This document shows positions 596-32,179 of a DNA stretch of 44,996 bases, piece by piece. This DNA comes from a phage, in sequence record PZ789432.1. One strand, 5' to 3'. Positions within the stretch are counted from its first letter, which is position 1; each line of letters opens with the position of its first letter. Made by a program: the position numbers and the translations under genes. Below the pieces are notes generated by a model. That model worked only from the letters and a program-made list of their open reading frames with translations, had not been told where the DNA came from and made no database searches.

Positions 596-611
596 GTCTA
601 ACATGTGAGAC
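596..611. repeat. near-copy (1 mismatch) of the 16-bp palindrome GTCTCACATGTGAGAC
   Basis: gtctaacatgtgagac; differs from the perfect copies at one position. Confidence 0.5.
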
Positions 612-645
612 AACCTAGATTTATCTTAGTGATGATATCTTAGTG

Positions 646-674
646 TTGACAAGGCCGTCTCAATATAATACTAT
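646..674 (+). promoter_or_regulatory. sigma70-like early promoter (TTGACA, 17 bp spacer, TACTAT)
   Basis: Perfect -35 TTGACA at 646..651; -10 TACTAT at 669..674 after a 17-bp spacer; upstream of the first early genes, as for T7 A-type promoters. Confidence 0.5.
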
Positions 675-817
675 TCATCACGTAGGCAGCACTGAGGTGC
701 TTAGTAGCCAGCTAGTAAGGCATACGAAGAGACTAGCGCTTACATTGCTCTTTAACAATTTGCTTAGTGTAACCTATGTATGCCGTGGTTAATTACTTAT
801 TGAATGAGGGATTAACT

Positions 818-997
818 ATGACATTAAACAACCGTGAACTATCCGTTCTCTTCACTCTGTTGTGCTACATGATTCGTAACAACGAATTACTTACAGACGA
901 TGAGTTAGCCTTGTATCACCGCTTTCTTAACGAAGGTTGGACCGATACAATTAATCAATACCGTAACATGATAGATGAGTTGAGGGAGGGTAAATAA
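818..997 (+). CDS. hypothetical early protein (59 aa, mildly acidic)
   Basis: ORF track 776..997; preferred start ATG 818 preceded by GAGGGA; stop overlaps the next start (TAATG). Confidence 0.6.
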   Translation: MTLNNRELSVLFTLLCYMIRNNELLTDDELALYHRFLNEGWTDTINQYRNMIDELREGK

Positions 998-2449: not shown

Positions 2450-3373
2450 ATGACTACTGAAAACATCCTCCTGTCTGTCCGTGAAGCTGCAACCGCTGAG
2501 ATTAAGCAGCATTTGGATAATATCGGCACTTCTTACATCAAAGTTGGCGCTTGTCTGAATGAATTACGCGGTGATTTCGAAGGTCAAAAAGACTTTTTAG
2601 CTTATGTCGAATCAGAGTTCGGCATCAAGAAAGCACAATGCTACAAGCTGATGAGTGTAGCCCGTGTCTTTGAAGGAGACGAACGCTTTAAAGGTGTGGC
2701 TATGCGTGTAATGCTGGCGCTTGTTCCTTTCGCTGATGAAAATATGATCATGGAGAAGGCCGCAGAACTCGCCGCAGAGGGCAAGCTGGACACTAACGCC
2801 GTAAACGCCCTGATTGATCCTAAGAAAGAGACAAAGGCCGAGACGGTACAACCTAAGGTTGAGTCGGTAAAACCGCAGGAGAACGCGACTGAGGCCGCAG
2901 AAACTATGCAAGGACATGCAACCTTTGAGGATTTCATATTAGAGAAGGCGAAAGAGGAGCTACAAAGTGTGCCGCCAGCAAGTGAGTCGGATGACGACAA
3001 ATCAGCACCGTGGGAAGAGGAAAGCAAGCCGGAAGCGCCAAAGACTGCGCCACTGGACAACACGGCTAACACCGAGAGTGCCGCTATTGCTGGCCTTCTG
3101 GCACAAATTAAAGCACTGACTGAGCAATTACAGGCAGCCAATGACCGCATCGCCTCCTTAAGTAGCGCACGCGAAAGCAAGAAGGCAGCCGCGCCTATGC
3201 TGCCGCAATTCAAATCTTCCTGCTTCTATGCTCGCTTAGGTTTAAGCGCTGAGGAGGCAACGAAGAAAACAGCAGTTAACAAGGCACGCCGCGAACTGGT
3301 TAAGCTAGGCTACGGCGAAGGCCATGAAGCATGGCCCTTAATCTCTGAGGCAGTAGAAGAATTAACTAAGTAA
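2450..3373 (+). CDS. hypothetical early protein (307 aa), Ala/Glu-rich with a C-terminal coiled-coil-like region
   Basis: ORF track 2441..3373 starts at GTG; ATG at 2450 preceded by AAGGTG. Sits where T7 has gp0.7, but I see no kinase motifs. Confidence 0.7.
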   Translation: MTTENILLSVREAATAEIKQHLDNIGTSYIKVGACLNELRGDFEGQKDFLAYVESEFGIKKAQCYKLMSVARVFEGDERFKGVAMRVMLALVPFADENMIMEKAAELAAEGKLDTNAVNALIDPKKETKAETVQPKVESVKPQENATEAAETMQGHATFEDFILEKAKEELQSVPPASESDDDKSAPWEEESKPEAPKTAPLDNTANTESAAIAGLLAQIKALTEQLQAANDRIASLSSARESKKAAAPMLPQFKSSCFYARLGLSAEEATKKTAVNKARRELVKLGYGEGHEAWPLISEAVEELTK

Positions 3374-3436: not shown

Positions 3437-6064
3437 ATGCAAGACCTACACGCTATTCAACTTCAACTTGAAGAAGAAATGTTTAACGGCGGTATCCGTC
3501 GCTTTGAAGCGGACCAACAACGCCAGATTGCATCCGGTAATGAATCAGACACGGCATGGAATCGCCGCTTATTGTCCGAGTTAATCGCGCCAATGGCTGA
3601 AGGTATTCAGGCTTATAAGGAAGAGTACGAAGGCAAGCGCGGTCGTGCACCACGTGCATTGGCTTTCATTAACTGCGTAGAAAATGAAGTGGCAGCGTAT
3701 ATCACGATGAAAATCGTAATGGATATGCTTAACACTGATGTAACCTTGCAGGCTATAGCCATGAATGTAGCTGACCGCATTGAGGACCAAGTACGTTTTA
3801 GCAAGCTGGAAGGTCACGCCGCCAAATACTTTGAGAAAGTTAAGAAGTCACTTAAGGCAAGTAAGACTAAATCATATCGCCATGCGCACAACGTAGCGGT
3901 CGTGGCTGAGAAGTCAGTAGCTGACCGTGACGCTGATTTCTCTCGCTGGGAGGCGTGGCCTAGAGATACCTTGCTACAAATTGGTATGACCTTGCTAGAA
4001 ATACTGGAAAATAGTGTATTCTTCAATGGTCAGCCTGTCTTTCTTCGCACCTTGCGCACTAATGGTGGCAAGCATGGCGTTTACTACTTACAGACTAGCG
4101 AACACGTGGGTGAATGGATAACTGCATTTAAAGAGCACGTAGCTCAGCTGAGTCCAGCCTATGCACCTTGCGTTATTCCTCCGCGTCCGTGGGTTTCTCC
4201 GTTTAATGGTGGCTTTCACACCGAGAAGGTGGCAAGTCGCATCCGTCTAGTAAAAGGTAACCGTGAGCACGTCCGTAAGCTGACTAAAAAGCAAATGCCA
4301 GCGGTTTACAAGGCTGTTAACGCCTTACAAGCTACTAAGTGGCAGGTTAACAAGGAAGTATTGCAGGTAGTAGAAGATGTTATTCGTCTAGACCTCGGTT
4401 ATGGTGTACCTTCCTTTAAGCCGCTCATTGACCGCGAGAACAAACCAGCTAACCCTGTTCCTCTTGAGTTCCAGCACCTGCGAGGCCGTGAACTTAAAGA
4501 GATGCTAACGCCGGAACAATGGCAAGCCTTTATAAACTGGAAAGGAGAATGTACCAAGCTGTATACCGCTGAAACTAAGCGCGGAAGCAAGTCGGCGGCG
4601 ACCGTTCGCATGGTTGGACAAGCCCGTAAATACAGCCAGTTTGACGCAATTTATTTTGTGTATGCACTGGACAGCCGTTCACGCGTTTATGCGCAATCTA
4701 GCACGCTCTCGCCGCAATCAAACGACTTAGGCAAGGCATTGCTCCGTTTTACCGAAGGGCAGCGTCTTGATAGCACTGAGGCGCTTAAGTGGTTTTTGGT
4801 GAACGGGGCGAATAACTGGGGTTGGGATAAGAAAACTTTTGACGTGCGCACCGCTAACGTGCTGGATAGCGAATTTCAAGACATGTGCCGCGACATTGCA
4901 GCGGATCCGCTGACCTTCACTCAATGGGTAAATGCTGATTCCCCTTATGGCTTCCTTGCATGGTGCTTTGAATATGCGCGTTATCTGGATGCACTGGACG
5001 AAGGAACGCAAGACCAATTCATGACGCACCTACCCGTCCATCAAGATGGTAGTTGCTCTGGTATCCAGCACTATAGCGCGATGTTACGAGATGAAGTAGG
5101 TGCGAAAGCAGTAAACCTTAAGCCTTCTGACTCCCCTCAAGATATTTATGGCGCGGTTGCGCAGGTTGTTATCCAGAAGAATTACGCCTACATGAATGCA
5201 GACGACGCAGTGACTTTCACATCCGGAAGCGTCACACTTACAGGTGCAGAACTGCGTAGCATGGCTAGTGCGTGGGATATGATAGGAATCACTCGCGGCC
5301 TGACCAAAAAGCCCGTAATGACACTACCTTATGGCAGCACACGTCTAACCTGCCGTGAGTCAGTGATTGATTATATCGTTGATTTAGAAGAAAAAGAGGC
5401 CCAACGAGCTATTGCGGAAGGGCGTACCGCCAATCCTGTACACCCTTTTGATAATGACCGTAAGGACAGCCTGACACCTAGCGCAGCTTATAACTATATG
5501 ACAGCTTTAATCTGGCCTTCTATTTCGGAAGTGGTTAAAGCTCCTATAGTGGCGATGAAAATGATTCGTCAGCTTGCCCGTTTCGCAGCTAAAAGGAATG
5601 AAGGCTTAGAGTATACCTTGCCTACTGGCTTCATCTTGCAACAAAAGATTATGGCTACTGATATGCTCCGCGTATCCACTTGCCTGATGGGAGAAATCAA
5701 GATGAGTCTCCAGATTGAAACGGACGTAGTGGATGAAACGGCTATGATGGGCGCTGCTGCTCCTAACTTTGTGCATGGTCATGATGCCAGTCACCTTATC
5801 TTAACGGTCTGCGACCTTGTTGATAAAGGGATTACATCTATCGCAGTAATTCATGATTCTTTTGGCACTCATGCAGGTCGCACCGCAGACCTACGTGATA
5901 GTCTAAGGGCAGAAATGGTGAAGATGTATCAAGGCCGTAACGCTCTGCAAAGCCTGTTAGATGAGCATGAAGAACGCTGGTTAGTAGACACCGGAATCCA
6001 AGTGCCAGAGCAAGGAGAGTTTGACCTTAACGAAATCTTAGTATCTGACTATTGCTTCGCATAA
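3437..6064 (+). CDS. single-subunit DNA-dependent RNA polymerase (SP6-type)
   Basis: 875 aa; N-terminus [32 protein letters not shown] and C-terminus ...[12 protein letters not shown]...[10 protein letters not shown] closely match SP6 RNAP as I remember it; T7-family motifs present ([39 protein letters not shown]). Confidence 0.97.
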
Positions 6065-6073
6065 TATTAATAG

Positions 6074-6104
6074 GCCATTCCTTAGGGAGTGGCCTTTTCT
6101 TTTA
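6074..6104 (+). terminator. intrinsic terminator after the RNAP gene
   Basis: Hairpin ggccattcc-ttag-ggagtggcc (9-bp stem, one G-U pair) followed by TTTTCTTTT. Confidence 0.6.
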
Positions 6105-6137
6105 CCTATTACCTGTAACATTTAATTAACATAACCG

Positions 6138-6153
6138 TGTCTCACACGTGAGA
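6138..6153. repeat. 16-bp palindrome GTCTCACACGTGAGAC
   Basis: 7-bp inverted arms GTCTCAC/GTGAGAC; lies just upstream of a phage promoter. Confidence 0.8.
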
Positions 6154-6156
6154 CTT

Positions 6157-6179
6157 ATTTACCGGACACTATAGGATAA
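6157..6179 (+). promoter_or_regulatory. phage RNAP promoter (atttaccggacactatagg)
   Basis: Matches the genome-wide consensus ATTTACYGGACACTATAG; predicted +1 G at 6174. Confidence 0.7.
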
Positions 6180-6320
6180 CCGTCGGAGACGGAAAGAAAG
6201 GGAAGATAAAGGATATAAAAGGAAGTAATAGGTATTAAAGGTTATATAGGTTTACCTAGGAATACCTATTACCTTCTTCCTTCCTCTTATTACTACTTAA
6301 AGGAAGGGCAGACCTAAGTT

Positions 6321-6336
6321 GTCTCACATGTGAGAC
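6321..6336. repeat. 16-bp perfect palindrome GTCTCACATGTGAGAC
   Basis: Same family as 6138..6153; just upstream of a second phage promoter. Confidence 0.8.
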
Positions 6337-6341
6337 TTCGT

Positions 6342-6364
6342 ATTTACCGGACAATATAGATAAG
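6342..6364 (+). promoter_or_regulatory. phage RNAP promoter variant (atttaccggacaatatagataag)
   Basis: One core mismatch (C to A); second of two tandem promoters upstream of the gene 1.1-like ORF, as phi1.1A/phi1.1B in T7. Confidence 0.55.
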
Positions 6365-6389
6365 ACTAACTTACTTTGGAGATTTAACC

Positions 6390-6518
6390 ATGCGTAACTT
6401 TGAGAAGATGACCCGTAAAGCTAACCGTTTTGACATGGAAGAAGGGCAGACGAAAGGCAAGAAGCTGAATAAGCCTGTCCGTGACCGTGCATCTAAACGC
6501 GCAGCATGGGAGTTCTGA
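6390..6518 (+). CDS. T7 gene 1.1-like small basic protein (42 aa)
   Basis: MRNFEKMTRKANRFDMEEGQTKGKKLNKPVRDRASKRAAWEF resembles T7 gp1.1 as I remember it; SD GGAG upstream; below ORF-track cutoff. Confidence 0.6.
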   Translation: MRNFEKMTRKANRFDMEEGQTKGKKLNKPVRDRASKRAAWEF

Positions 6519-6521
6519 GTT

Positions 6522-6740
6522 ATGGCTAAATACAGAATCAAGACCTGTTTAAATAGTCACGGGCAAGAATTCTACGTAGTGCAACGTAAAGTATTAGGCT
6601 TAATATGGCTCACTTGTATGATGCCTATTGGCTATACTGATACAGAGGCTATCTTCTGCACCGAAAGGGATGCAAAGAAGTTTATCTCTAAGCGTAGAAA
6701 AGCTGACTCTTACCAACCTAGAATTATTAAGGTGAACTAA
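6522..6740 (+). CDS. hypothetical protein (72 aa)
   Basis: ORF track; between gene 1.1-like and primase-helicase. Confidence 0.55.
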   Translation: MAKYRIKTCLNSHGQEFYVVQRKVLGLIWLTCMMPIGYTDTEAIFCTERDAKKFISKRRKADSYQPRIIKVN

Positions 6741-8728
6741 TGGCTATTATTAATAACATCCCGTGCCCTGCCTGTCAAAAGAATGGACATGATATTACTG
6801 GCAACCATCTTATGATATTTGAGGATGGCGCTGGTTACTGTAACCGTGGTCACTTCCATGATAATGGTAAGCCTTATTACCATAAGCCAGAGGGTGGTAT
6901 CGAGATAACCGAATTGCCTATTACTGGCAATATCAAATATACACCTTCTCAATTCAAAGAAATGGAGAAGGAAGGGAAGATAAGCGACCCTAAGCTACGC
7001 GCCATCGCACTTGGTGGTATGCGTATGAAAGATCGTTGGGAGGTCATGAATGAGCAAGAAAGGGCAGACCAAGAAGCAGAGTGGAAGCTTGATGTTGAAT
7101 GGTTCCTCACGCTTAAGCGTAAGAACCTTGTATCCCGTCACATTCGAGGTGACATCGCAGCAATGTACGATGTGCGCGTTGGACACGATGAAGAGGGAAG
7201 AGTCAACCGTCACTATTATCCACGATATGAAAAGGGTGTGCTTGTTGGAGCAAAATGCCGGACGTTGCCGAAGGATTTTAAGTTCGGACACCTAGGTAAA
7301 CTCTTTGGTATGCAAGACCTTTTCGGTATGAACACTTTGTCTCACGTGTTAGACAAGGGGAGACGAAAGGATTGCTTGCTTATTGTAGGCGGTGAACTTG
7401 ATGCACTAGCAGCGCAGCAGATGCTCCTTGATTCTGCCAAGGGTACTAAGTGGGAAGGCCAGCCATACCATGTATGGTCTGTCAACAAAGGCGAGTCTTG
7501 TCTTGAAGAGATAGTGCAAAACCGTGAGCATATCGCCCAATTCAAGAAGATTATATGGGGTTTTGATGGAGATGAGGTAGGGCAGAAGCAGAATCAGCAA
7601 GCGGCTCGCCTGTTTCCTGGCAAATCCTATATCCTTGAATACCCCTCTGGTTGCAAAGATGCTAACAAGGCATTGATGGCTGGCAAGGCTAAAGAGTTTG
7701 TAGATGCATGGTTTAATGCCAAGTCATCTGATGAAGTCTTTGGTAGCCAGATTAAATCTATCGCATCTCAAAGGGATAAGCTCAAGGCTGCACGTCCAGA
7801 GCAAGGACTATCATGGCCTTGGCCTAAGCTGAACAAGGTCACGCTAGGTATTCGTAAGAACCAACTTATCATTGTAGGCGCAGGCTCTGGTGTAGGTAAG
7901 ACTGAGTTCCTTCGTGAAGTAGTTAAGCACCTCATTGAAGAACACGGTGAATCTGTAGGCATCATTTCTACAGAAGACCCGATGGTCAAGGTGTCCCGTG
8001 CTTTTATCGGCAAGTGGATTGATAAGCGCATTGAGTTACCGCCAACCAACGACCCGAAAGAAGATGGATACCGTGAGGTGTTCGACTACACCGAGGAAGA
8101 GGCTAACGCCGCCATTGATTATGTAGCTGATACAGGTAAGCTGTTTGTAGCTGACCTAGAGGGTGACTATTCGATGGAAAAGGTAGAGCAAACTTGCCTA
8201 GAGTTTGAGGCTATGGGCATTTCTAATATCATCATTGATAACTTAACGGGGATTAAATTAGATGAGCGTGCTTTTGGTGGGAAGGTTGGTGCACTTGATG
8301 AATGCGTCAAGCGGATTGGTACTATCAAAGACCGACACCCGGTTACTATATTCCTTGTATCACACCTTACACGTCCTCCGGCAAACCGTACCCAACACGA
8401 AGAAGGTGGCGAGGTTATCCTTTCTGACTTCCGAGGCTCAGGCGCTATCGGATTCTGGGCATCTTACGCCTTGGGGATTGAGCGTAATACAAGAGCTGAA
8501 ACGCTTGACGAAAGGACTACCACGTACATCTCATGTGTCAAAGACCGCGACCAAGGAATATTTTCCGGTACTCGTATAATGCTTAAAGGTGATATTGCTA
8601 CTGGTCGATTACGTGAACCAGAGCAAAGATCTCGACCGTTTGATACTGGTGCTCCAAAAGAACAAACTGTACCAGAAGAAGTAGTGGATAAAGGAGGATT
8701 TATTGCTGACGAAGTTGAAGAGTTTTGA
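6740..8728 (+). CDS. DNA primase/helicase (T7 gp4-like)
   Basis: 662 aa; N-terminal zinc ribbon CPACQ...CNRGH; Walker A VGAGSGVGKTEF; acidic C-terminus ending EEF. Confidence 0.93.
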   Translation: MAIINNIPCPACQKNGHDITGNHLMIFEDGAGYCNRGHFHDNGKPYYHKPEGGIEITELPITGNIKYTPSQFKEMEKEGKISDPKLRAIALGGMRMKDRWEVMNEQERADQEAEWKLDVEWFLTLKRKNLVSRHIRGDIAAMYDVRVGHDEEGRVNRHYYPRYEKGVLVGAKCRTLPKDFKFGHLGKLFGMQDLFGMNTLSHVLDKGRRKDCLLIVGGELDALAAQQMLLDSAKGTKWEGQPYHVWSVNKGESCLEEIVQNREHIAQFKKIIWGFDGDEVGQKQNQQAARLFPGKSYILEYPSGCKDANKALMAGKAKEFVDAWFNAKSSDEVFGSQIKSIASQRDKLKAARPEQGLSWPWPKLNKVTLGIRKNQLIIVGAGSGVGKTEFLREVVKHLIEEHGESVGIISTEDPMVKVSRAFIGKWIDKRIELPPTNDPKEDGYREVFDYTEEEANAAIDYVADTGKLFVADLEGDYSMEKVEQTCLEFEAMGISNIIIDNLTGIKLDERAFGGKVGALDECVKRIGTIKDRHPVTIFLVSHLTRPPANRTQHEEGGEVILSDFRGSGAIGFWASYALGIERNTRAETLDERTTTYISCVKDRDQGIFSGTRIMLKGDIATGRLREPEQRSRPFDTGAPKEQTVPEEVVDKGGFIADEVEEF

Positions 8729-9191
8729 GGCAGCAGGATATACCATCAAGGAGGATGGTACTATCCTTAACCCTAAAGGTGTAATACTTAAACCGAGCCA
8801 ATCAGGAAGGAAATTAAAGTATTTATATGTAAGTTGGAGACATCAAGGAAGAAGAGTAACAGAGCTTGTACACAGATTGGTTGCTAAGAAGTACATACCC
8901 AACCCACACAGTTTACCAGAAATTCATCATAAAGACTTTAACCCTCTTAATTGTCATAAAGACAATCTTGAATGGACAGATGGTAAGACTAATTGTGAGT
9001 ATAGTTATGCAAGGGTAGAAGCTGCACTTGCACGTCATGCTACTTTATTGTCACCTGATGGCATTAAGTACGACATATTTAATGTTCGTAAATTCTGCCG
9101 CGAACATGGCCTCAATCCACCTAGTGTATTTGAGGTGCTTAGTGGTAAACGGAAGTCACATAAAGGGTGGACTATTTACCGGACACTATAG
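8703..9191 (+). CDS. HNH homing endonuclease
   Basis: 162 aa; EIHHKDFNPLNCHKDNLEW HNH motif. No in-frame ATG; starts at TTG 8703 six nt after AAGGAGG, inside the last 26 nt of the helicase gene. Confidence 0.8.
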   Translation: MLTKLKSFEAAGYTIKEDGTILNPKGVILKPSQSGRKLKYLYVSWRHQGRRVTELVHRLVAKKYIPNPHSLPEIHHKDFNPLNCHKDNLEWTDGKTNCEYSYARVEAALARHATLLSPDGIKYDIFNVRKFCREHGLNPPSVFEVLSGKRKSHKGWTIYRTL

Positions 9192-9196
9192 AAGAG
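9174..9196 (+). promoter_or_regulatory. phage RNAP promoter (atttaccggacactatagaagag)
   Basis: Consensus match; +1 G at 9191; overlaps the HNH stop codon. Confidence 0.75.
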
Positions 9197-9225
9197 ACAA
9201 CCTTTGACGATGAACAGGAGTTTTA

Positions 9226-9387
9226 ATGGAAATTATTAAACCAGTATTGAATATCGGTATTGAGATCCTATTCATGCTTGTGATCGCAGATTATGCTGCA
9301 CGATATGGATTCAAGAAAGCTGTGAAACTTATCGTTGCATCTGGTTTTCTTATGTCAATGTTCTTTATTGTAACACGCCTTATCTAG
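9226..9387 (+). CDS. hypothetical small membrane protein (53 aa)
   Basis: ATG 9226 with SD CAGGAG; hydrophobic throughout. Confidence 0.4.
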   Translation: MEIIKPVLNIGIEILFMLVIADYAARYGFKKAVKLIVASGFLMSMFFIVTRLI

Positions 9388-9404
9388 TGTATTTATCAGG
9401 GCTT

Positions 9405-9420
9405 GTCTCACATGTGAGAC
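9405..9420. repeat. 16-bp perfect palindrome GTCTCACATGTGAGAC in a terminator-like context
   Basis: Flanks extend the pairing (gcttgtctcaca/tgtgagacaggc), followed by tcttatt. Confidence 0.8.
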
Positions 9421-9459
9421 AGGCTCTTATTAAGTACATTAAATAACTGGAGATTGATT

Positions 9460-10143
9460 ATGTATAAATTAGTATTGAATGTAGGTGATTATGTTCGTAA
9501 CATCAATGAAGCCTCACGTCGTTATCGTTGCCGTGGTGTAGTGGCTCGTGTAAGTGAGAACATGTATCATGTAGAATATGATGATGGTATTAAGGCTTCT
9601 TATCACAAGAAAACCGCACATAAATATCTTGAAAAGGTTGTAGAGGTAAACAATCAATGTAAGTGCATACATGATGAGGTTTGCGATAAATGTGCTCGCC
9701 AGATGCTTAAGAATTTCCTAGCCCCTCTTTATTATGGTGCTGGTCCTCAAACACTAGCAGAGTACATGGCAGAAAAGAAAACCACACTCAAGAAAGAGCG
9801 TCGCAATGTAATCACTGGTAAGACTCAAAGTGAGATGATTAAGCAATGTGGCACTGCATTAGGTGTTACACAGTTCAATACTCGTGCATTGGGTAAATCC
9901 ACAGGGCAAGCTATGGTGAAAATTGGTGAAGCTATGATGCAACCAAATGTACCTGTGCGAATCGTGGATATTGACCATGCAATCACAGAGCATGGTACAC
10001 CACGCCGTGTAGCTAACAATCATTTTGCCGACACTATAGAAGACATTATTCGTAAGCAAGGGTTGAAGGGTCTTCACATCTTAAATGGTGAAGAATTACT
10101 GTACCTACCTATCGTTACTGAAGAAACCTACGTGAATATCTAA
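9460..10143 (+). CDS. hypothetical protein (227 aa)
   Basis: ORF track 9454..10143 (TTG); first ATG at 9460 with SD GGAG; contains a Cys cluster CKCIHDEVCDKC. Confidence 0.7.
   Translation: MYKLVLNVGDYVRNINEASRRYRCRGVVARVSENMYHVEYDDGIKASYHKKTAHKYLEKVVEVNNQCKCIHDEVCDKCARQMLKNFLAPLYYGAGPQTLAEYMAEKKTTLKKERRNVITGKTQSEMIKQCGTALGVTQFNTRALGKSTGQAMVKIGEAMMQPNVPVRIVDIDHAITEHGTPRRVANNHFADTIEDIIRKQGLKGLHILNGEELLYLPIVTEETYVNI
10022..10044 (+). promoter_or_regulatory. phage RNAP promoter located inside a CDS (ttttgccgacactatagaagac)
   Basis: Core GACACTATAGAAGA identical to the consensus; lies within 9460..10143. Confidence 0.5.
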
Positions 10144-10153
10144 GGAGTTAATC

Positions 10154-10372
10154 ATGACTAAAGTATTAATTTATATGCGTGGACCTCATAAATGCTATGC
10201 AGTTGTAGCACCAAATGGTGTTAAGCCCTATAGTACTTCAAAAGGATTGGCATTAATAGGTGCTAGTAGTAGTGCAAGTTTCCAAATGGAACTTTTTGGT
10301 CATTGGACTGAATGGCAATTCCGTGAGGATTTTAAAGTCATTGGCAGCTTCATGGTGAAACATGCAGAATAA
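10154..10372 (+). CDS. hypothetical protein (72 aa)
   Basis: ORF track; strong SD AAGGAG upstream. Confidence 0.65.
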   Translation: MTKVLIYMRGPHKCYAVVAPNGVKPYSTSKGLALIGASSSASFQMELFGHWTEWQFREDFKVIGSFMVKHAE

Positions 10373-10385
10373 ACATAGTCTTAAA

Positions 10386-10538
10386 ATGTTCGATGGTCAT
10401 GAAGACCTGCAAGCCAAGATTACTAACCAAGCCTTCCTGTTCGCACAGTTAACTATGGCTGAAGCAAAGAAGAATAGCCTGACGCGTGAACAGGTTATCA
10501 AGGAAAGTGAAGTGAAACGTAAGATTCGCAGTCGATAA
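10386..10538 (+). CDS. hypothetical small protein (50 aa)
   Basis: ATG 10386; below ORF-track cutoff; followed by a palindrome. Confidence 0.35.
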   Translation: MFDGHEDLQAKITNQAFLFAQLTMAEAKKNSLTREQVIKESEVKRKIRSR

Positions 10539-10548
10539 GTCAAGGGTT

Positions 10549-10564
10549 GTCTCACACGTGAGAC
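10549..10564. repeat. 16-bp palindrome GTCTCACACGTGAGAC in a terminator-like context
   Basis: Extended stem ggttgtctcac/gtgagacagcc followed by tttcatc. Confidence 0.8.
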
Positions 10565-10595
10565 AGCCTTTCATCATATTGATTGGAGGTGCATT

Positions 10596-10703
10596 ATGCC
10601 ACGTGATTATGATTCTGATTGGGACTATTATGACTCAATGAATCCAAAACCCGAACGTTCAGATGATTACTACGAAACAGAGGCAATGTATGAAGACTAT
10701 TAA
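10596..10703 (+). CDS. hypothetical small acidic protein (35 aa)
   Basis: ATG 10596 six nt after GGAGG; MPRDYDSDWDYYDSMNPKPERSDDYYETEAMYEDY. Confidence 0.3.
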   Translation: MPRDYDSDWDYYDSMNPKPERSDDYYETEAMYEDY

Positions 10704-10908
10704 ATTAAGCAAGGTTTGCTCTTGCGGTAAAGGCTATCGCAGTCGTATTGATGGTAAGTGTGGACATTGTAGGTCTAAGAAAGAGGCTGCTTTGTTTTAC
10801 AAATACCACAATGAACTCTCCTATAACTACCCTCATCTAACACCTAATTCTTTATTAGGACTTGGTTATAGGGCTAAATACTTTGGAGCAATCTATGAAA
10901 TCAATTGA
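10690..10908 (+). CDS. hypothetical zinc-ribbon protein (72 aa)
   Basis: ORF track 10663..10908; ATG 10690 preferred (GAGG 6 nt upstream); CSCGKG...CGHC motif. Confidence 0.5.
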   Translation: MKTIKLSKVCSCGKGYRSRIDGKCGHCRSKKEAALFYKYHNELSYNYPHLTPNSLLGLGYRAKYFGAIYEIN

Positions 10909-11380
10909 TTGGAAGAAGGAAGCGGAAGGGCGCATCCTAGTTATGGACGCCGAGGCGAAAGGTCTACTTGATGCTATACGCTATGGTCATCGTGAAGACG
11001 TGCATATCATCTGCTGTATGGACCTGTTGACTACAGAGGAGTTTCTCTTCTTCGACCCGTATGAGATGCGTGACCCTGAAGCAAGAGAACGCCTGAAGGA
11101 ATGGGAAGGTCATCAAGATGGTGACTTGGTTGATGGTGTTAACTTCCTGAAGCATTGTGAAGCTATTGTGTCACAGAACTTCCTAGGGTATGACGGACTT
11201 CTCTTTGAGAAAGCATTCCCTGATATTTGGAAGGGCTTTAACTATACCGAGAAGCGCGGTAAGGGCAGACTCCGTGCTGACCTGTGTCCGGTGCGAGTCA
11301 TGGATACGCTGGTGATGAGTCGCCTGTTAAACCCAGATAAGACGCCTTCCTCCGCAAGCATATGCCAAAGGTATGGGTAA
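10895..11380 (+). CDS. DNA polymerase (Pol I family), fragment 1 of 4: 3'-5' exonuclease domain; frame-disrupted
   Basis: ORF track 10862..11380 (TTG), first ATG 10895; Exo motifs ILVMDAEAKGL and NFLGYDGLLFEKAF; VMDTLVMSRLL parallels T7 gp5 CIDTLVLSRLI. Homology continues in another frame. Confidence 0.85.
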   Translation: MKSIDWKKEAEGRILVMDAEAKGLLDAIRYGHREDVHIICCMDLLTTEEFLFFDPYEMRDPEARERLKEWEGHQDGDLVDGVNFLKHCEAIVSQNFLGYDGLLFEKAFPDIWKGFNYTEKRGKGRLRADLCPVRVMDTLVMSRLLNPDKTPSSASICQRYG

Positions 11381-11786
11381 CGTCGCCCCTCACTCAATTG
11401 AGGCGCACGGCATCCGTATAGGCCGCTATAAACCGGAGAACGAGGACTGGTCTAAACTAACTGACCACATGGTTCACCGTGTACGTGAGGACGTGGCGAT
11501 TGGTCGTGACTTGTTCCTCTGGCTCTTTAACGGGGAATGGATGGAGCATAAACGCCGTGGCGTGAATAAACGCACGGGCCTAGGCATTGAGACAGCCTTC
11601 CACATGGAGTCCATTGTGGCGCTGGAGATGAGCCGTCAGGCCGAGCGGGGGTTCCGTCTGGACATCGACAAGGCTTTGGCCCGATGCGAAGAATTGGACG
11701 CTAAGATTGATGAGACAGTCGCAGCGTTCCGCCCTCACATGCCTATGCGTATCAAGTCTAAACCTTTTAAACCGGAAGAAAAGTAA
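11373..11786 (+). CDS. DNA polymerase, fragment 2 of 4; frame-disrupted
   Basis: HSIEAHGIRIGRYK parallels T7 gp5 HALEAWGYRLGEMK; the frame is open upstream from 11331, so the shift lies near 11335..11372. Confidence 0.8.
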   Translation: MGNVAPHSIEAHGIRIGRYKPENEDWSKLTDHMVHRVREDVAIGRDLFLWLFNGEWMEHKRRGVNKRTGLGIETAFHMESIVALEMSRQAERGFRLDIDKALARCEELDAKIDETVAAFRPHMPMRIKSKPFKPEEK

Positions 11787-12445
11787 TGAAGTATGCCAAC
11801 GCGCAAATGAGTATGGAGCTAGCAACAATATACCTACTGTCCTTGACCCCTCACACTTTCTTCATGCCGAGAGACGAGGAGATCGCAAGACAGTATGGAG
11901 AGCTTGTCACTACTAAGTCTGGTGATTGGTCGGCTAGTGTTAAGAAAGACTTTCCTCACCTTAGAGGAAACCGTAATGACACGCCAAGCATCAAGTGGAT
12001 TGGCGCTTACTCGCCTGTTACTTTCGAAGAGATTCCCTTGGGTAACAGGGATACAGTTAAGCAAGTGCTCTATGATTATGGATGGAAAGGTGTTGAATTT
12101 AACGATACCGAGCAAGCGCATCTCGATGAGTACGGAGTGTTACCCAAACCTTGGAGTGGTAAGATAAATGAAAAGTCCCTCACTTTATGGCAAGAAAGAG
12201 CCGCACGTGAAGGTAAAACAGTACCTGATTGGTGCTTGGGTATCGCTGCATGGTACATACTCGTATCCCGTCGTGGTCAGATACTCAACCGTGGTGACGT
12301 TGAAGCCTTCAACGAGAAGGGGAACGTGGCCCTCGCAGGCTGGTGTACGAAAGTGTCGCGGCCTTGTACCTGTAGCATTCAACAAGGAGCTAGGAATCAA
12401 TGCGCAGCAATACTACGAGAGGTACGGATGTTGGCCTACGTCTGA
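11786..12445 (+). CDS. DNA polymerase, fragment 3 of 4; frame-disrupted
   Basis: Back in the frame of fragment 1; polymerase-like over its N-terminal two thirds. Confidence 0.7.
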   Translation: MKYANAQMSMELATIYLLSLTPHTFFMPRDEEIARQYGELVTTKSGDWSASVKKDFPHLRGNRNDTPSIKWIGAYSPVTFEEIPLGNRDTVKQVLYDYGWKGVEFNDTEQAHLDEYGVLPKPWSGKINEKSLTLWQERAAREGKTVPDWCLGIAAWYILVSRRGQILNRGDVEAFNEKGNVALAGWCTKVSRPCTCSIQQGARNQCAAILREVRMLAYV

Positions 12446-13448
12446 CAAAGATGACGGAGAGTGGCGTGTTCCAGCTGTTGCTATTAGTATTGGCACTTCT
12501 ACGTTCCGTATGCGTCATCGTAACGTGGTTAATATTCCTGCCCGTGGCTTGTATCCTTTACGTGATTTATTCATAGCAGGGAAAGGCAAGCTAATCCTTG
12601 GTTGTGACGGTGCAGGTCTTGAACTGCGTGTCCTGTCTCACTTCATGAATGACCCTGAGTACCAAGAGATTGTACTGCACGGTGATATTCATACGCATAA
12701 CCAGATGAAGGCTGGTCTTCCTAAGCGTGATATGGCGAAGACGTTTATATACGCCTTCCTCTATGGTTCTGGTATAGCCAACCTTGCAGCAGTCTGCGGT
12801 GTTACTGAGGAAGAAATGAAGGAAGTTGTGGCAAGATTCGAGATTGAACTACCGTCTCTTGCACGTCTTCGTGAGAATGTTATCGCACAAGGTAACAAGT
12901 TTGGCTACCTGCAAGCACCTGATGGGCATTGGGGTCGCATCCGCATGTCTGGTGGTGAACTTAAAGAGCACACGATGCTTAACGTATTACTCCAGATGAC
13001 TGGCTCTTTGTGTATGAAATATGCATTAGTCAAGGCATTTGCAGTAATGCGCAAGGAAGGTGTAGCTTTGGATGCTATGGGAAATCCTTGTGGTGTGGCT
13101 AACGTGCATGATGAAATCCAGATGGAAGTTCCTGAAGAGGAGGTCTTGTATCTTAACTACGACCTACCTTTCACCTTAGATGGGTTCGAAACAGAGAAGG
13201 CTGCTGTGAAAGCAGTTTTCGATGCAGAGGAGAAACGTGTTCATGTGGATTCTGAAGGACGTATGTGGTCTGCTGCAAACCTCGTTAGCGTTGATGCTGA
13301 TGCTGGTGTATTGCATTGCCAGCGCCGTTATCACCGTGCAGGTCATATCATTGCCGACGCCATGACTTGGGCAGGGCAGTATCTGAAGATGCGTTGCCCG
13401 ATGGCAGGAGAATATAAGATTGGCGCAAGCTGGAAGGAAACACACTGA
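12168..13448 (+). CDS. DNA polymerase, fragment 4 of 4: palm/fingers; frame-disrupted
   Basis: Motif A GCDGAGLELRVLSHF, TSTFRMRHRNVVNIP (T7 TGRATHAFPNLAQIP), KTFIYAFLYG, VHDEIQ. Reliable homology starts near 12430; the first ~260 nt of this ORF overlap fragment 3. Confidence 0.85.
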   Translation: MKSPSLYGKKEPHVKVKQYLIGAWVSLHGTYSYPVVVRYSTVVTLKPSTRRGTWPSQAGVRKCRGLVPVAFNKELGINAQQYYERYGCWPTSDKDDGEWRVPAVAISIGTSTFRMRHRNVVNIPARGLYPLRDLFIAGKGKLILGCDGAGLELRVLSHFMNDPEYQEIVLHGDIHTHNQMKAGLPKRDMAKTFIYAFLYGSGIANLAAVCGVTEEEMKEVVARFEIELPSLARLRENVIAQGNKFGYLQAPDGHWGRIRMSGGELKEHTMLNVLLQMTGSLCMKYALVKAFAVMRKEGVALDAMGNPCGVANVHDEIQMEVPEEEVLYLNYDLPFTLDGFETEKAAVKAVFDAEEKRVHVDSEGRMWSAANLVSVDADAGVLHCQRRYHRAGHIIADAMTWAGQYLKMRCPMAGEYKIGASWKETH

Positions 13449-13564
13449 TGGATAGGCTTGACATTATTTGCCTATTCTTCACTCTCTTTCTTACACTCCT
13501 TATGCTTGCTTGTTATGGGAGTATGAGACTAGATATACCTGATGAAGAAGAGGGTTACGACTAA
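13448..13564 (+). CDS. hypothetical small membrane protein (38 aa)
   Basis: ATG overlaps the polymerase stop (TGATG); hydrophobic core. Confidence 0.35.
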   Translation: MDRLDIICLFFTLFLTLLMLACYGSMRLDIPDEEEGYD

Positions 13565-13662: not shown

Positions 13663-13730
13663 GTTATACTCAAGGTCACTTACGGGTGGCCTTTATGGAT
13701 AACTTATCCCTACTTATTTTGTCTAACATG

Positions 13731-13753: not shown

Positions 13754-13817
13754 AAGCCTAGACAATCTAGGTTTATAAGGTAGTATAGGTAATTAAGTAA
13801 ATATAGGAGATATAAAC

Positions 13818-15614: not shown

Positions 15615-15630
15615 GTCTCACGTGTGAGAC
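15615..15630. repeat. 16-bp palindrome GTCTCACGTGTGAGAC
   Basis: Same family; 15 bp upstream of a phage promoter. Confidence 0.8.
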
Positions 15631-15644: not shown

Positions 15645-15668
15645 TATTTACTGGACACTATAGAAGAG
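15645..15668 (+). promoter_or_regulatory. phage RNAP promoter (tatttactggacactatagaagag)
   Basis: Exact consensus; +1 G at 15663. Confidence 0.8.
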
Positions 15669-28476: not shown

Positions 28477-29198
28477 TGGCTATAGGTTCAGCCGTTATGG
28501 CTGGTATGTCTTCTATTGGTAGTATGTTTGCAGGCAGTGGTGCAGCAGCCGCTGCTGGAGGTGCTGCCGCAGGTGGCGGAGGCTTGCTAGGTTCTCTAGG
28601 TGGCTTCCTAAGCGGCTCTACTGCTGGCTTCTCTAATGCTGGGCTTCTTGGTGCTGGCCTTCAAGGTTTAGGCTTGATTGGTGATCTCTTTGGTGGAAGT
28701 GATGAAGCCAAGGCAATGAAGAAAGCACAAGAAGAACAGTGGCGGCAGCAACTTATTGCTACACAAGAAGCATACAAAACAGTAGCAGATGCAGAGCGTT
28801 CTGCTGCTAAACAATATCATGCAGATGCAATAAGCAATCAGGCTTCACTACTACAGCAGCGAGCACAGGTTGCATTACTAGCAGGTGCTACTGGTACTGG
28901 TGGTAACTCTGTAACTTCTATGCTGAATGACTTAGCAGCAGAGGGCGGGAGGAACCAGAGTACAATTATTGATAACTATGAGAATCAGAAGATTAACTTC
29001 ACCAATCAGCTTAAGTCTATCCAGCGAGGTGGACAGATGCAGATGCGTGAGTTTAAGAAGCCTTCTGCCGTGAGCACCTTGGTGCAAGGTATACCGAGTC
29101 TGGCATCTGCCTATGTAACAGGTAGTAAGTCCGGCATGGCTTTAGGTAAAGCTTTAACTGATTCTCGTACATATTCATCTGGAACAAGAGGTATTTAA
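28476..29198 (+). CDS. internal virion protein (Gly/Ala-rich)
   Basis: ORF track 28437..29198; ATG 28476 after AAGGAGG; Gly/Ala-rich N-terminal segment. Confidence 0.7.
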   Translation: MAIGSAVMAGMSSIGSMFAGSGAAAAAGGAAAGGGGLLGSLGGFLSGSTAGFSNAGLLGAGLQGLGLIGDLFGGSDEAKAMKKAQEEQWRQQLIATQEAYKTVADAERSAAKQYHADAISNQASLLQQRAQVALLAGATGTGGNSVTSMLNDLAAEGGRNQSTIIDNYENQKINFTNQLKSIQRGGQMQMREFKKPSAVSTLVQGIPSLASAYVTGSKSGMALGKALTDSRTYSSGTRGI

Positions 29199-32146
29199 TG
29201 GCAATTGAGCGACAAGCAGTACAAGGTCTGCCACAAGTGCAGGCCACTTCTCCTAATGTCATGACCTTTGCACCTCAGCGAGTTGGAGGTGTGGAGGCTG
29301 GCGTAGCTTCTACCTCCGGTAGTCGATTTATCGAAGACCTTATTCGAGCAGCCAGTAGTGTAGCTGATGTAACCACTGGTATCCTTAATCAAAAGATTGA
29401 GGAAGATAAGGTTGTTCAAATGGAACGGGCATATAACGGATTAATGCCTTCTGAGGATGCAACTCGTGGTGGCGCTCGTGCTAACATGCTTGTCAAAGCT
29501 CAACTGCTAGCTAATGATGAAGCAGCACGAATGAAAGACATGGCTACTCGTTTCCAAGGGACGGATGACGAGTGGACACAACTTATGGTTGACTCTCGTA
29601 ATGAGATGCAGAATAAGCTGTTCCAGCAATACCCTGAGTTGCAAGGTGACAAAGATACTATGCGTATGGTCACTAATGTCTTCCAAGAACAGCAGCCTCA
29701 GATTTGGGCGACACGAACCCAGCATAAACTTGACCGTGAACAAGCAGACCGTGAGGATACCTTTGACGGGCGAGTGGCTTCTACTTGGGATTCTAATATT
29801 GACCCTGAAGCATCTGGCTATGCTTTACAGGAACGAATCCGCGAAGGTCTTACTCAAGGATTACTACCTGAACAGATGCACAAGAAGTTAGTCCAGCGAG
29901 CAATTTCACTTGCACAAGGCGGTGATGTTAGCATGGCTGAAGCCCTGAAGTATGTGAAGGACGATAAGGGTGTTTCTGTTTATGCTAAGAATCCACAGCT
30001 TATCACAGCCATCACTAGTGGTAATGCAGTTTGGGCTAGGAATAATGTAGCTGATGTAACTCGTATGTCTTTCGAAGTTAAAGAATCATACCTTGCAGGT
30101 GATTTAACTGATGAAGAATTGTTGGAACGAGCACAGCACATTAATAATCTGACAGGTAACTATGTCTTCTCTAATCCAGAACTAGAGGCACTGATGCGCC
30201 AACGGGCTAAGCAGAATGCAGAGCTAGGTGCAATGCAGGATATGCGACGTGAGCTTTACTCCGACCGCCTGACTGGCTTCCAAGGTAAGACTGATAAAGA
30301 GAAGAAGGCTTACATTGATGTTATCAAACAGGATAGCCAACTTTATGCAGACCAGCAAATCAAACAACGTGGCTTGGACCCTTACAGTCAAGAGGCTGAA
30401 GCTATTCGTGGTGCAGTGGAAGTGCAGCGCCTGCAATTCATGAACTCCAAAGGCTTAGTGGATGATACCTTTGAGTCTCGTATCAAAGCCATGGAATCTA
30501 TGCTATCGCCTGAGCACTTTGCCAAGGGCGAACCACAGGAGTTGATGACTATTCGCCAGTTGTGGGAACAGTTGCCAGAAGAGAGCCGAGGTGTCTTTGG
30601 TGACACGGTTAATGGCTACATGGATAACTACAACACTGCACTACAAATGGGAGAGACACCTTTGCAGGCTGCAAGGTTTGCGCGTGAAGCACAGCAGAAA
30701 TTCTCTCGTACTGAGAAGGAAACCAAGAAGTTCAACTCAGCTATTGGAGATGCACTGGATGAGGTATCTGGTGCTGGCTGGTTTGATGGTAAAACCGAAG
30801 TGTCAGACTTAGGTAAAGCTATTGCGGAAGAAGAGTTACGAGCTAAGGCCAATATGTTGTGGTCTAGTGGTATGCGTAACATGGATTCTATCAAGAAGGC
30901 TTTAATTACTTGGGGCAATAAACGCTACACTCAAACAGAGGATGCAAAGACTTCCGGTGGCTATTTCATTAAAGGTGATTACACTTCTGCATCTGATATG
31001 CTTATGTCAGTTGGGAAAGGCGTAAACCCTACCGATGTACCTCTGGCGCTTGGTAGGTATGTAGAAACACAGATGCCAGAATTGAAGAAGGAGCTTCAAG
31101 AGTGGGAAACTAAAGATGATATATACATTGATTACAATGAACAGAAAGGTACTTTCGTGATTCGTGCTGGTGCAGCAGGTCGCCCTCTTTCTGGAGTAAT
31201 CCCTGTAACCTCTTTAGATACCACTTCACTACTAGATTCTGCCTATCAGAAGAAAGTAGAGGAACGAGATAAAGGCGAGTATGTTCACCCTTATCGTACA
31301 GATATTGGTGCACAAGAGCCTATGCCAGCTAAACCCACTGCCAAAGATATTGGTAAATTTGGACTAGCTAACTTCCTCATGTCTTCTGCTTTTGCTTCTG
31401 GTGAGAATCTGCCTTCTAACTTCGAGATTAACTATCGAGGTAATATGCAACAATTCTATGACAAGCTAGCTATGGATGAGAATAAAGATAAAGTTGGCTT
31501 TAATAAGGCAACTGGAACCTTTACTCCATATAAAGATGCTCACGGTGAGTCTATCGGTTACGGTCATTTCTTAACGGAAGAAGAGAAGCGAAACGGGTAT
31601 ATTAAGATTGGTGATGAACTAGTTCCCTATCGAGGGTCTATGTCTCAGCTTACAGAGAGCAAGGCTCGCGCTCTTATGGAGCAAGATGCCAAGAAGCATG
31701 TGCCTCCTACTCGTGACTGGAAGATTCCGTTTGACCAGATGCATCCTGCACAGCAACGTGGCTTGATGGATTTAACCTACAATTTAGGTAAAGGTGGAAT
31801 CCAGAACTCACCGCGTGCTCTTGCTGCATTCAAAGCTGGTAAGCTTACGGAAGGCTTTATCGAAATGCTGGGCACTGCATCAAGTGAAGGTAAACGTATT
31901 CCGGGCCTACTGAAGCGACGCGCTGAGGCATACAATATGGCAGCTGCTGGTGGTGTACCTAAGATCACAGAAGTGGAGACGAGGGAAGATGGCTCTATGT
32001 GGGTTAAGTTTGGTGGACCTATGCCAGCAGGCTCTATTTCTGCGTGGACGCATAAACGTATTGGAGCCGATGGCTGGTATCAGGTTTATGAGGCTGCACC
32101 TACCAAGTTAGCTAAAGACTCTAAGGTAGGTAAAGTTAAATTGTAG
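29198..32146 (+). CDS. internal virion protein with C-terminal lysozyme-like domain
   Basis: 982 aa; C-terminal region (~31400..31950) ...GESIGYGHFLTEEEK...LMDLTYNLGKGG... resembles T4-lysozyme-type muramidases. Confidence 0.75.
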   Translation: MAIERQAVQGLPQVQATSPNVMTFAPQRVGGVEAGVASTSGSRFIEDLIRAASSVADVTTGILNQKIEEDKVVQMERAYNGLMPSEDATRGGARANMLVKAQLLANDEAARMKDMATRFQGTDDEWTQLMVDSRNEMQNKLFQQYPELQGDKDTMRMVTNVFQEQQPQIWATRTQHKLDREQADREDTFDGRVASTWDSNIDPEASGYALQERIREGLTQGLLPEQMHKKLVQRAISLAQGGDVSMAEALKYVKDDKGVSVYAKNPQLITAITSGNAVWARNNVADVTRMSFEVKESYLAGDLTDEELLERAQHINNLTGNYVFSNPELEALMRQRAKQNAELGAMQDMRRELYSDRLTGFQGKTDKEKKAYIDVIKQDSQLYADQQIKQRGLDPYSQEAEAIRGAVEVQRLQFMNSKGLVDDTFESRIKAMESMLSPEHFAKGEPQELMTIRQLWEQLPEESRGVFGDTVNGYMDNYNTALQMGETPLQAARFAREAQQKFSRTEKETKKFNSAIGDALDEVSGAGWFDGKTEVSDLGKAIAEEELRAKANMLWSSGMRNMDSIKKALITWGNKRYTQTEDAKTSGGYFIKGDYTSASDMLMSVGKGVNPTDVPLALGRYVETQMPELKKELQEWETKDDIYIDYNEQKGTFVIRAGAAGRPLSGVIPVTSLDTTSLLDSAYQKKVEERDKGEYVHPYRTDIGAQEPMPAKPTAKDIGKFGLANFLMSSAFASGENLPSNFEINYRGNMQQFYDKLAMDENKDKVGFNKATGTFTPYKDAHGESIGYGHFLTEEEKRNGYIKIGDELVPYRGSMSQLTESKARALMEQDAKKHVPPTRDWKIPFDQMHPAQQRGLMDLTYNLGKGGIQNSPRALAAFKAGKLTEGFIEMLGTASSEGKRIPGLLKRRAEAYNMAAAGGVPKITEVETREDGSMWVKFGGPMPAGSISAWTHKRIGADGWYQVYEAAPTKLAKDSKVGKVKL

Positions 32147-32163
32147 TACCTAACTCAAGGCTT

Positions 32164-32179
32164 GTCTCACATGTGAGAC
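32164..32179. repeat. 16-bp perfect palindrome GTCTCACATGTGAGAC in a terminator-like context
   Basis: Extended stem cttgtctcaca/tgtgagacagg followed by tcttt. Confidence 0.8.

Follow-up and report, generated by a model that had tools for sequence, protein, structure and literature searches.

The window analyzed here, which is the whole 44,996 nucleotide stretch of DNA in the sequence record PZ789432.1, represents the complete genome of a K1E-like Vectrevirus (Molineuxvirinae), whose identity to K1E, EEc4, and related records is 92–97% across positions 5900–16100. A direct terminal repeat of ~260 bp (1–258 and 44732–44996) indicates that the whole genome with both of its ends is present. This genome carries a family of short palindromes at about eight sites, which are spread over its left third and one late site, as well as gene 6, which encodes an early protein (gp6). 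The phage promoters in the window number 13, all on the + strand, and four of the palindromes are located just 5' of promoters, three of which are phage promoters and one the first host-type early promoter. The results described below suggest that gp6 probably recognizes these palindromes as operators in double-stranded DNA, and that the tips of three RNase III-type hairpins are likewise formed by members of this family.

Palindrome Copies in the Vectrevirus Genome

Exact matches to the sequence GTCTCACAYGTGAGAC are found at six places in the window (6139, 6321, 9405, 10549, 15615, and 32164), whereas none was observed in 100 dinucleotide-preserving shuffles. When up to two mismatches are allowed, only the copies at 596–611 and 7339–7354 are added, the expected number being 0.04. 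The original prediction had described at least six perfect palindromes of 16 bp, together with one-mismatch copies at the latter two positions, the second of them inside the primase/helicase open reading frame (ORF). The number of copies and both near-copies are borne out by these results, but only the three AT-centered copies (6321, 9405, and 32164) are perfect 16 bp palindromes among the exact matches, those with AC or GT centers being 7+2+7 inverted repeats, and the first copy starts at 6139 rather than at 6138. Similarly, three copies do lie upstream of phage promoters as had been claimed, but the distances differ from the 5–20 bp that were given for them (Table 1).

The centers of the promoter-proximal palindromes are found at about −27, −30, and −40 from the transcription start sites (TSSs) of the phage promoters. 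The copy at 6139 covers about −35 to −20 with respect to a predicted TSS at 6174, and the center of the copy at 15615 is at about −40.5, a spacing that is equal in SP6 and near-equal in PM116. The left-end copy is located 34 nt 5' of the TTGACA element (646–651) of the first sigma-70-type early promoter. The copy at 6321 is found where R1.1 is located in T7, between the two tandem promoters that follow the RNA polymerase (RNAP) gene and 5' of gene 8 (6390–6518), which matches PF08200 (Phage_1_1) and is the homolog of T7 gene 1.1.

Table 1. Palindrome copies and associated features in PZ789432.1.
Feature	Position	Strand	Remarks
Left-end copy	596..611		GTCTAACATGTGAGAC; one mismatch; one half-site of the older GTCTAAC type
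Core-only copy, AC center	6139..6154		ends 2 nt before promoter 6157–6178
Core-only copy, AT center	6321..6336		5 nt before promoter 6342–6363
In-gene copy	7339..7354		GTCTCACGTGTTAGAC; one mismatch; in primase/helicase ORF 6740–8728; encodes SHVLD
Core-only copy, GT center	15615..15630		pattern on − strand; + strand reads ...CACGTGTG...; 15 nt before promoter 15646–15667
Exact copies inside type A elements	9405–9420, 10549–10564, 32164–32179	+ (elements)	apical 16 nt of hairpins
Type A element	9385..9441	+	two-tier hairpin: lower stem, internal loop, 13 bp upper stem; tip 9405–9420; cut expected near 9430
Type A element	10529..10586	+	capped by 10549–10564; z = −4.9; cut expected near 10575
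Type A element between gp35 and gp36	32143..32201	+	capped by 32164–32179; z = −3.7; cut expected near 32190
Phage promoter P1	6157..6178	+	ATTTACCGGACACTATAGGATA; palindrome directly 5'
Phage promoter P2	6342..6363	+	ATTTACCGGACAATATAGATAA; palindrome directly 5'
Phage promoter upstream of gene 18	15646..15667	+	3' of palindrome 15615
Gene 6	2450..3373	+	307 aa early protein, DUF3102 family, just upstream of RNA polymerase gene; candidate reader

Based upon the predicted folding of their surroundings, the copies are of two types. A two-tier hairpin was found only at 9405, 10549, and 32164 (type A), and it is absent at 596, 6139, 6321, 15615, and the in-gene copy 7339 (type B), where the core has no flanking extension. 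For the core-only copies, the predicted folds are not more stable than those of shuffled sequences (z of 0.2–0.7; z = +0.5 for 6139), whereas the RNA of the element 9385–9441 has a folding energy of −31.7 kcal/mol with z = −6.4. The flanks of type A copies have the arrangement (A)CTCAAGG or ACTCAAGG, followed by the core and then CCTTTATGA, and they lengthen the stem by 7 bp. As this extension contains conserved G.U pairs, it exists on the sense strand only, and with Watson–Crick pairs alone it amounts to 1 bp. The type A architecture is present at the syntenic sites of every genus, and an RNAalifold analysis of 13 sequences recovered 23 pairs, of which 13 show compensatory double changes. In a MAFFT alignment, the type A flanks align with T7 R0.3, R0.5, R1.1, R4.7, and R18.5. 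The conserved flanks ACUCAAGG ... CCUUUAU/GA, where the slash marks the cut, are common to the type A copies and the T7 R sites, and the flanks of the element 32143–32201 (ACTCAAGG...TCTTTATGA) are nearest to the T7 consensus. In the T7.1 record DQ100054, R0.3, R0.5, R1, R1.1, and R1.3 are annotated as stem-loops, and the cut sites of the first four of these are at CCTTTATG/A or an equivalent position. Because of this two-tier fold, the covarying pairs, and the alignment to annotated T7 R sites, the type A copies are predicted to be T7-type RNase III processing signals and not terminators. For these three copies, the earlier suggestion that the family might represent a shared RNA hairpin for processing is thus supported.

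The type A copies share with the RNase III sites of T7 the two-tier hairpin, the ACUCAAGG and CCUUUAUGA flanks, and the intercistronic position. They differ from them in having an upper stem that is ~3–4 bp longer and a tip that consists of a fixed palindrome. Additionally, five of the eight palindrome copies lack the double-stranded extension that RNase III needs. A scan of the window against Rfam revealed no matching family, and the records of K1E, K1-5, and SP6 contain only coding sequence annotation.

Conservation and Lineage Variants of the Palindromes

The conservation of the motif in related phages, which the original prediction had proposed as a check, is readily observed. All eight sites are present at syntenic positions in K1E, and K1-5 contains seven sites of the same type as the window; its eighth site (9570) is likewise syntenic but has a foreign GTCCAAC form. 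Beside this K1-5 site, the homology to K1E stops ~25 nt downstream, so that a mosaic junction adjoins the element. With the generalized pattern GTCNNACRYGTNNGAC, 7–9 copies each were detected in SP6, PP1, the Klebsiella phages pKP-M186-2.1 and F4M1D, K1E, K1-5, and R4596, and the number of syntenic copies per genome is 6–9 (K1E, K1-5, SP6, PP1, pKP-M186, F4M1D, and Nifs112). Overall, there are eight copies in the window and 5–12 in its relatives, where the chance expectation is 0.

The sequence of the palindrome is specific for the lineage, with one variant being common to all copies within a genome and a center that is 2 or 3 nt long. PP1 and the Klebsiella phages have the form GTCCAAC-RY-GTTGGAC, SP6 has mostly GTCTAAC..GTTGGAC, and the Pantoea phage Nifs112 has GTCTCAC..GTGAGAC. 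In the Proteus phage PM116, the stem is GTCCAAC, with a 3 nt center at five sites (one of them mismatched) and a 2 nt center at the left-end copy. Among the 79 loci that were fetched from IMG/VR by means of RNAP alignment, the palindrome family is present in every lineage whose RNAP shows at least about 39–40% identity to that of the window, which includes the Molineuxvirinae, the Colwellvirinae (e.g., Alpheus, Njord, and phiA318; for the subfamily name see PMC13552874), and others, and T7-like phages lack it. The forms observed in these loci include GTCTCAC-(ACT/AGT/GCT)-GTGAGAC, GTTTCAC-NNN-GTGAAAC, GTCTACA-NN-TGTAGAC, and GTCTAG-N4-CTAGAC, and further ones are GTCTAYTATARTAGAC, GTTCGAGATCTCGAAC, and GTAACACGCGTGTTAC. 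A scan of IMG/VR for the GTCCAAC form itself yielded mainly single chance matches outside 44 kb contigs.

The positions of the copies are also conserved. One is found at the left end, and one or two follow the RNAP gene, each of them just 5' of a phage promoter. Further copies are located within the primase gene, 3' of the primase/helicase gene, 5' of the DNA polymerase region, 5' of the gene 18 promoter, and between gp35 and gp36. The left-end copy is located 20–45 nt 5' of TTGACA in the Colwellvirinae and other lineages as well, and in PM116 and Nifs112 a palindrome abuts the promoter. Although ORFs cover 80–90% of these genomes, 86 copies are intergenic vs. 44 that are coding. The in-gene copies evolve in place, without indels, and follow the variant of the genome despite the resulting changes in amino acids. 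Thus, SHVLD is encoded by the primase copy in genomes with a GTCTCAC motif, but SNVLD in those with GTCCAAC or GTCTAAC. A copy in the RNAP gene is translated as VSNVLD when it is a 16-mer, whereas a 17-mer in that same position yields VSRCET. The retention of these copies and their adherence to the variant argue that the palindrome is a nucleic acid element under selection for sequence and not for structure alone, with concerted change in each genome.

In a phiA318-like member of the Colwellvirinae (locus L161, 9735–9780), a T7-like RNase III-type site (CTCAAGGCATCTTTCGAGGTGCCTTTATGA) and a palindrome occur separately, 18 nt apart, directly before a Shine–Dalgarno (SD) sequence and start codon. 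Because the R-type site and the palindrome are separable in this manner in the Colwellvirinae, the palindrome constitutes an independent module, which in some locations became part of an RNase III hairpin. The Klebsiella phage Roth32 (locus L133) has two peculiarities of its own, viz. a tandem array, (CTATAGTAAG)x9, after the RNAP gene (14500–14590), and a second palindrome family, GTACTAG-N4-CTAGTAC, at 7693, 14362, and 22362, which is present beside its GTCTAG family.

Several observations bear upon whether the core is recognized as DNA or as RNA. The mismatched copies, as tallied by hand on the sense strand, include eight with U.G and six with C.A, which reveals no strand bias, and the central base of the 17-mers can be C or G. 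In another lineage (locus L182), the asymmetric quasi-palindrome GTCTACTATAATAGAC, which always consists of one ACT and one ATT half, is present in nine copies in both orientations (e.g., at 79, 4385, and 12631), an arrangement that favors a site at the level of DNA for this lineage. Additionally, position 8 of the half-site is a purine on both strands. In view of the lack of strand bias, the C and G centers, the two orientations in L182, and the purine at position 8, the core most likely behaves as a double-stranded DNA operator rather than as a sense RNA.

gp6 as the Candidate Reader and Competing Explanations

A tblastn profile indicated that the proteins common to all lineages with palindromes and absent from T7 are gp6, gp16, gp18, and partly gp17. 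In a set of 80 loci, comprising the 79 RNAP-anchored loci and T7, all 50 loci in which a homolog of gp6 is present are members of the clade that bears the palindromes, whereas the 21 loci with RNAP identity below 39%, T7 included, lack both gp6 and the palindrome family; at the clade level, the co-occurrence is perfect. The protein is predicted to consist of an N-terminal KorB/ParB/SopB-like helix-turn-helix (HTH) domain (residues 10–125), a disordered acidic linker, a coiled coil (206–247), and a C-terminal J-like domain (250–307), in which GHE is found where HPD would be expected. Its relatives carry the name DUF3102, and a literature search for a function of this family found none. An AlphaFold2 model based upon 86 sequences was confident for residues 10–125 (predicted local distance difference test score of about 95) and for 250–307. 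When this model was compared with the PDB using Foldseek, the top three matches, all of them weak, were the DNA complexes of VirB, KorB, and P1 ParB. No ParB/Srx CTPase domain was found in the model or by Pfam, nor any partner ParA-type ATPase by Pfam.

A connection between gp6 and the palindromes is provided by its second HTH helix (residues 61–74), the putative recognition helix, where residues 63 and 66 track the palindrome variant. Genomes with Q63 and K66 have GTCTCAC (or GTTTCAC if residue 65 is S), those with Q63 and N66 or H66 have GTCCAAC or GTCTAAC, Y63 or W63 with R66 is accompanied by GTCTACA or GTCTAGT, Y63 with N66 by GTCTAYT, H63 with R66 by GTAACAC, and S63/E66 by GTTCGAG. Both the helix and the motif could be read in 57 loci, of which 52 follow this code and none conflicts with it; of the remaining five, three have no family at the criterion used and two have other helix variants with weak, two-copy families. 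There are at least six classes of helix and motif, and the switch between K and N is nested within one clade. In the most revealing case, the Vectrevirus phages have K66 and GTCTCAC, although their gp6 and RNAP are closest to those of SP6 and the Klebsiella phages with N66 or H66 and GTCCAAC, and in this pairing they match the distant Eracentumvirus and Colwellvirinae. It is chemically plausible that Lys is placed opposite a C:G pair and Asn opposite an A:T pair. The earlier statement that the identical cores point to a shared reader, and not to independent terminators, thus finds some support with respect to a protein, for which gp6, with its predicted KorB/ParB-like HTH domain and helix covariation, is our candidate.

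The other proteins considered as readers (gp10, gp16, gp17, gp18, gp22, and small proteins) were set aside, as searches of Pfam, PHROG, and PDB sequences were uninformative for them. In the case of gp22 ("HTH + metallophosphatase"), tblastn matches were obtained in only four of five Molineuxvirinae comparators and in none of the Colwellvirinae, L198-group, and Roth32, most of whose sequences end before the gp22 region. Sites of the host factors CRP, MatP (matS), SlmA (SBS), and chromosomal ParB were rejected, as they have half-sites in the wrong order or spacing and as the palindrome variants follow the lineage of the phage and not its host. Recognition by the primase was also rejected, the site of the SP6 primase being 5'-GCA-3', which is absent from the motif.

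In the mechanism that we propose, the two half-sites (GTCTCAC-R) of a palindrome would each accommodate one recognition helix of gp6. We infer that gp6 binds to these sites, that it does so as a dimer, which is probable because of its coiled coil, and that its binding has a regulatory effect. At promoter-proximal sites, it may repress, insulate, or roadblock transcription at the early-to-middle transition, in analogy to KorB on RK2, and via the left-end site, gp6 could autoregulate the early operon to which its own gene belongs. It may also act in the region of the replication origin or recruit a chaperone via the J-like domain. Since transcription proceeds rightwards over the entire genome, an RNA hairpin would also arise from each operator. 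The three intercistronic operators would each have become the tip of a T7-type RNase III hairpin, which host RNase III would cut in its 3' internal loop (CUUUAU/GA), with the palindrome hairpin staying on the 3' end of the upstream mRNA.

A number of observations weigh against gp6 as the reader of a DNA operator. Its fold scores are moderate, and the sequence-level search found no link to ParB or KorB. The association between helix and motif is partly confounded by shared ancestry, with the number of independent switches being ~6–7. The K1-5 site at 9570–9585 (locus L002), GTCCAACGTGTTGGAC, is non-cognate in a genome of GTCTCAC type, and isolated half-sites are neither avoided nor enriched (62 observed vs. 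49 expected). The coexistence of 16 and 17 bp copies in PM116 and in loci L148, L164, and L198 is difficult to reconcile with a rigid dimer, so that a flexible one would be required, whereas it would be expected of a hairpin. Lastly, many copies in the Colwellvirinae abut SD sequences, hinting at a role at the RNA level, and this suggests that such a function may coexist with binding of the DNA.

If the palindromes functioned only as stem-loops in the sense-strand RNA, for processing or for stabilization of 3' ends and perhaps being read by a protein as RNA, then the covariation with gp6 would be coincidental or gp6 would bind RNA. Such a role agrees with the presence of three copies within sense-only RNA structures, a loop of 2 or 3 nt, six U.G copies of SP6 in the sense orientation, the Colwellvirinae copies directly 5' of SD sequences, and the enrichment in DNA that is intergenic and transcribed. 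However, the core-only copies fold like shuffled sequences, there is no overall strand bias (F4M1D has three C.A copies), the center and orientation are symmetric, and the left-end copy is upstream of the first early promoter. Additionally, a 7 bp A-form stem is hard to read in a sequence-specific manner, and the Pfam and PHROG scans of selected window proteins identified no candidate RNA-binding protein. We therefore regard an exclusively RNA-based function as unlikely. A role in the termination or pausing of transcription by the phage or the host RNA polymerase appears highly improbable; the copies at 9405, 10549, and 32164 had earlier been described as terminator-like. In favor of such a role, the equivalent of 9405 in phage R4596 is labeled as a terminator by ARNold, and a consensus scan listed only 6139 and 6321, as weak 6 bp candidates. 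The flanking complementarity that had been noted at the three copies is indeed present, on the sense strand only, but the U-rich tails described with it are weak (UUAUUAAG, UUUCAUCAU, and UUUAUGAU). No copy is followed by a proper U run, the other tails being UUAUUUACC, UUCGUAUUU, and AAAUCGG, and those of 6139 and 6321 represent the AT-rich start of the next promoter. The stems are short (6 bp in core-only copies), terminators need no shared sequence, two copies are within essential genes, and real terminator-like hairpins, which are separate from the palindromes, are found elsewhere (6072–6095, after the RNAP gene, and 16105–16132).

It could also be considered that the palindromes are recombinogenic or mobile, similar to repetitive extragenic palindromic (REP) elements or promoter early stem-loops (PeSLs), in which case copying or gene conversion would account for their identity, and they would serve in the exchange of modules. 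Homology breakpoints among Vectrevirus genomes, at 630, 9385, and 10590, are indeed located ≤35 nt from palindromes, and the foreign-type copy of K1-5 adjoins a mosaic junction. However, the association is modest, breakpoints being as frequent at promoters, the positions of the copies are syntenic from the Molineuxvirinae to the Colwellvirinae, and the in-gene copies change in place without indels. As no transposase-like match to Pfam or PHROG was found among selected window proteins of unknown function either, this explanation seems very improbable. Slightly less so, yet still improbable, is the possibility that the elements act as hairpins in single-stranded DNA or as cruciforms, on either strand and with or without gp6, in replication (as origin or in priming) or in recombination. 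The strand symmetry of the elements, their clustering near the equivalent of the primary origin of T7 (after the RNAP gene, with two promoters), and the combination of J-like and DNA-binding domains in gp6, as in some replication initiators, are in accord with it. However, a palindrome of 16 bp extrudes poorly and the site at 32164 is far from any presumed origin.

Comparison with Known Systems and Neighboring Features

Lytic T7-like phages are generally believed to control their program almost wholly by means of RNA polymerases and their inhibitors, promoters, and RNase III sites. Among these phages, SP6 and K1E/K1-5 serve as models and in therapy, and the RNA polymerase of SP6 is in standard use in the laboratory. 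In its use of a repeated inverted-repeat site in several copies per replicon, the system described here resembles KorB, for which the IncP plasmid RK2 contains 12 OB operators, as well as VirB, ParB-parS, and SopB-sopC. In contrast to KorB and ParB, gp6 lacks a ParB/Srx CTPase domain and a partner ATPase, having instead a coiled coil and a J-like domain; it is encoded by a strictly lytic T7-like phage, its putative half-sites are 2–3 extra bp apart, and no homology exists at the sequence level. The stoperators of mycobacteriophage L5 are likewise many copies of a short protein-binding site in transcribed intergenic phage DNA, with a proposed block of elongation, but each of these is an asymmetric 13-mer in the orientation of transcription, to which the immunity repressor of a temperate phage binds. 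Bacterial REP elements and the PeSLs of T4-type phages are similarly repeated intergenic palindromes that form RNA hairpins and are found at gene ends or promoters and at mosaic junctions. They differ in that the positions here are fixed over a long evolutionary distance, coding sequences included, in that no mobility enzyme was found, and in that the palindrome sequence covaries with a predicted DNA-binding protein.

A site-specific HTH protein with a repeated operator is a known kind of system, and what is new, as far as can be told, is its occurrence in lytic T7-like phages, the domain make-up of the protein, and the dual coding of the operators, which would double as tips of RNase III hairpins and as coding sequence for proteins. 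Our literature search found no mention of these sequences and nothing relevant to RNase III in SP6 or K1-5, although the repeat or RNase III-like sites might have been mentioned in the original SP6 and K1-5 genome papers, and a similar search for transcript ends of SP6-like phages also found none. Tentatively, and somewhat doubtfully, one may envisage that SP6-like phages possess a genome-wide circuit, in which a KorB-like gp6 and 5–12 dual-coded operators, recognized by a two-residue code (Q/Y/W/H63 and K/N/H/R66), would control the early-to-middle switch, the insulation of promoters, or the initiation of replication, possibly via the host Hsp70. If this is true, a site-specific DNA-binding protein with conserved operators would constitute an unrecognized layer of control and would provide a function for DUF3102, a widespread family of phage proteins. 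The two-residue code would make specificity predictable and amenable to engineering, and, as a natural code for protein–DNA recognition, it could be probed by swaps of single residues. Pairs of operator and reader might then be used as orthogonal parts beside orthogonal phage promoters. It would also be explained why apparent "terminators" in these genomes share a sequence, and the three intercistronic hairpins can be annotated as predicted T7-type RNase III signals.

Some other features of the window were also observed. From the promoter at 6157, an ORF-less transcript of ~165 nt (6174–6340) extends up to the palindrome and promoter that follow. This transcript has a strong predicted structure (−46 kcal/mol, z = −2.3) and occupies the position of the phi1.1A-R1.1-phi1.1B primary origin region of T7. 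The promoter at 15646 is located within an inverted repeat, GGTGTCCGGT / ACTGGACACT (15635–15660), whose left arm co-varies with the promoter sequence in SP6, pKP-M186, and PM116. Because this arm changes along with the promoter sequence, the hairpin that includes the promoter seems to be conserved. The proteins gp16 (14579–15385) and gp18 (15719–16099) have acidic tails that end in an aromatic residue (..DEDAEY and ..EEEEF), as is the case for T7 gp2.5 and gp4, and the C-terminus of the primase/helicase reads ..EVEEF. Both proteins are probably partners in the replisome, and gp16 is likely a single-stranded DNA-binding protein. Lastly, the DNA polymerase (10862–13448) and exonuclease (16316–17411) regions are each represented by several overlapping ORFs in different frames, although their blastn alignment to K1E is unbroken, and these apparent frameshifts are either sequencing errors or real.

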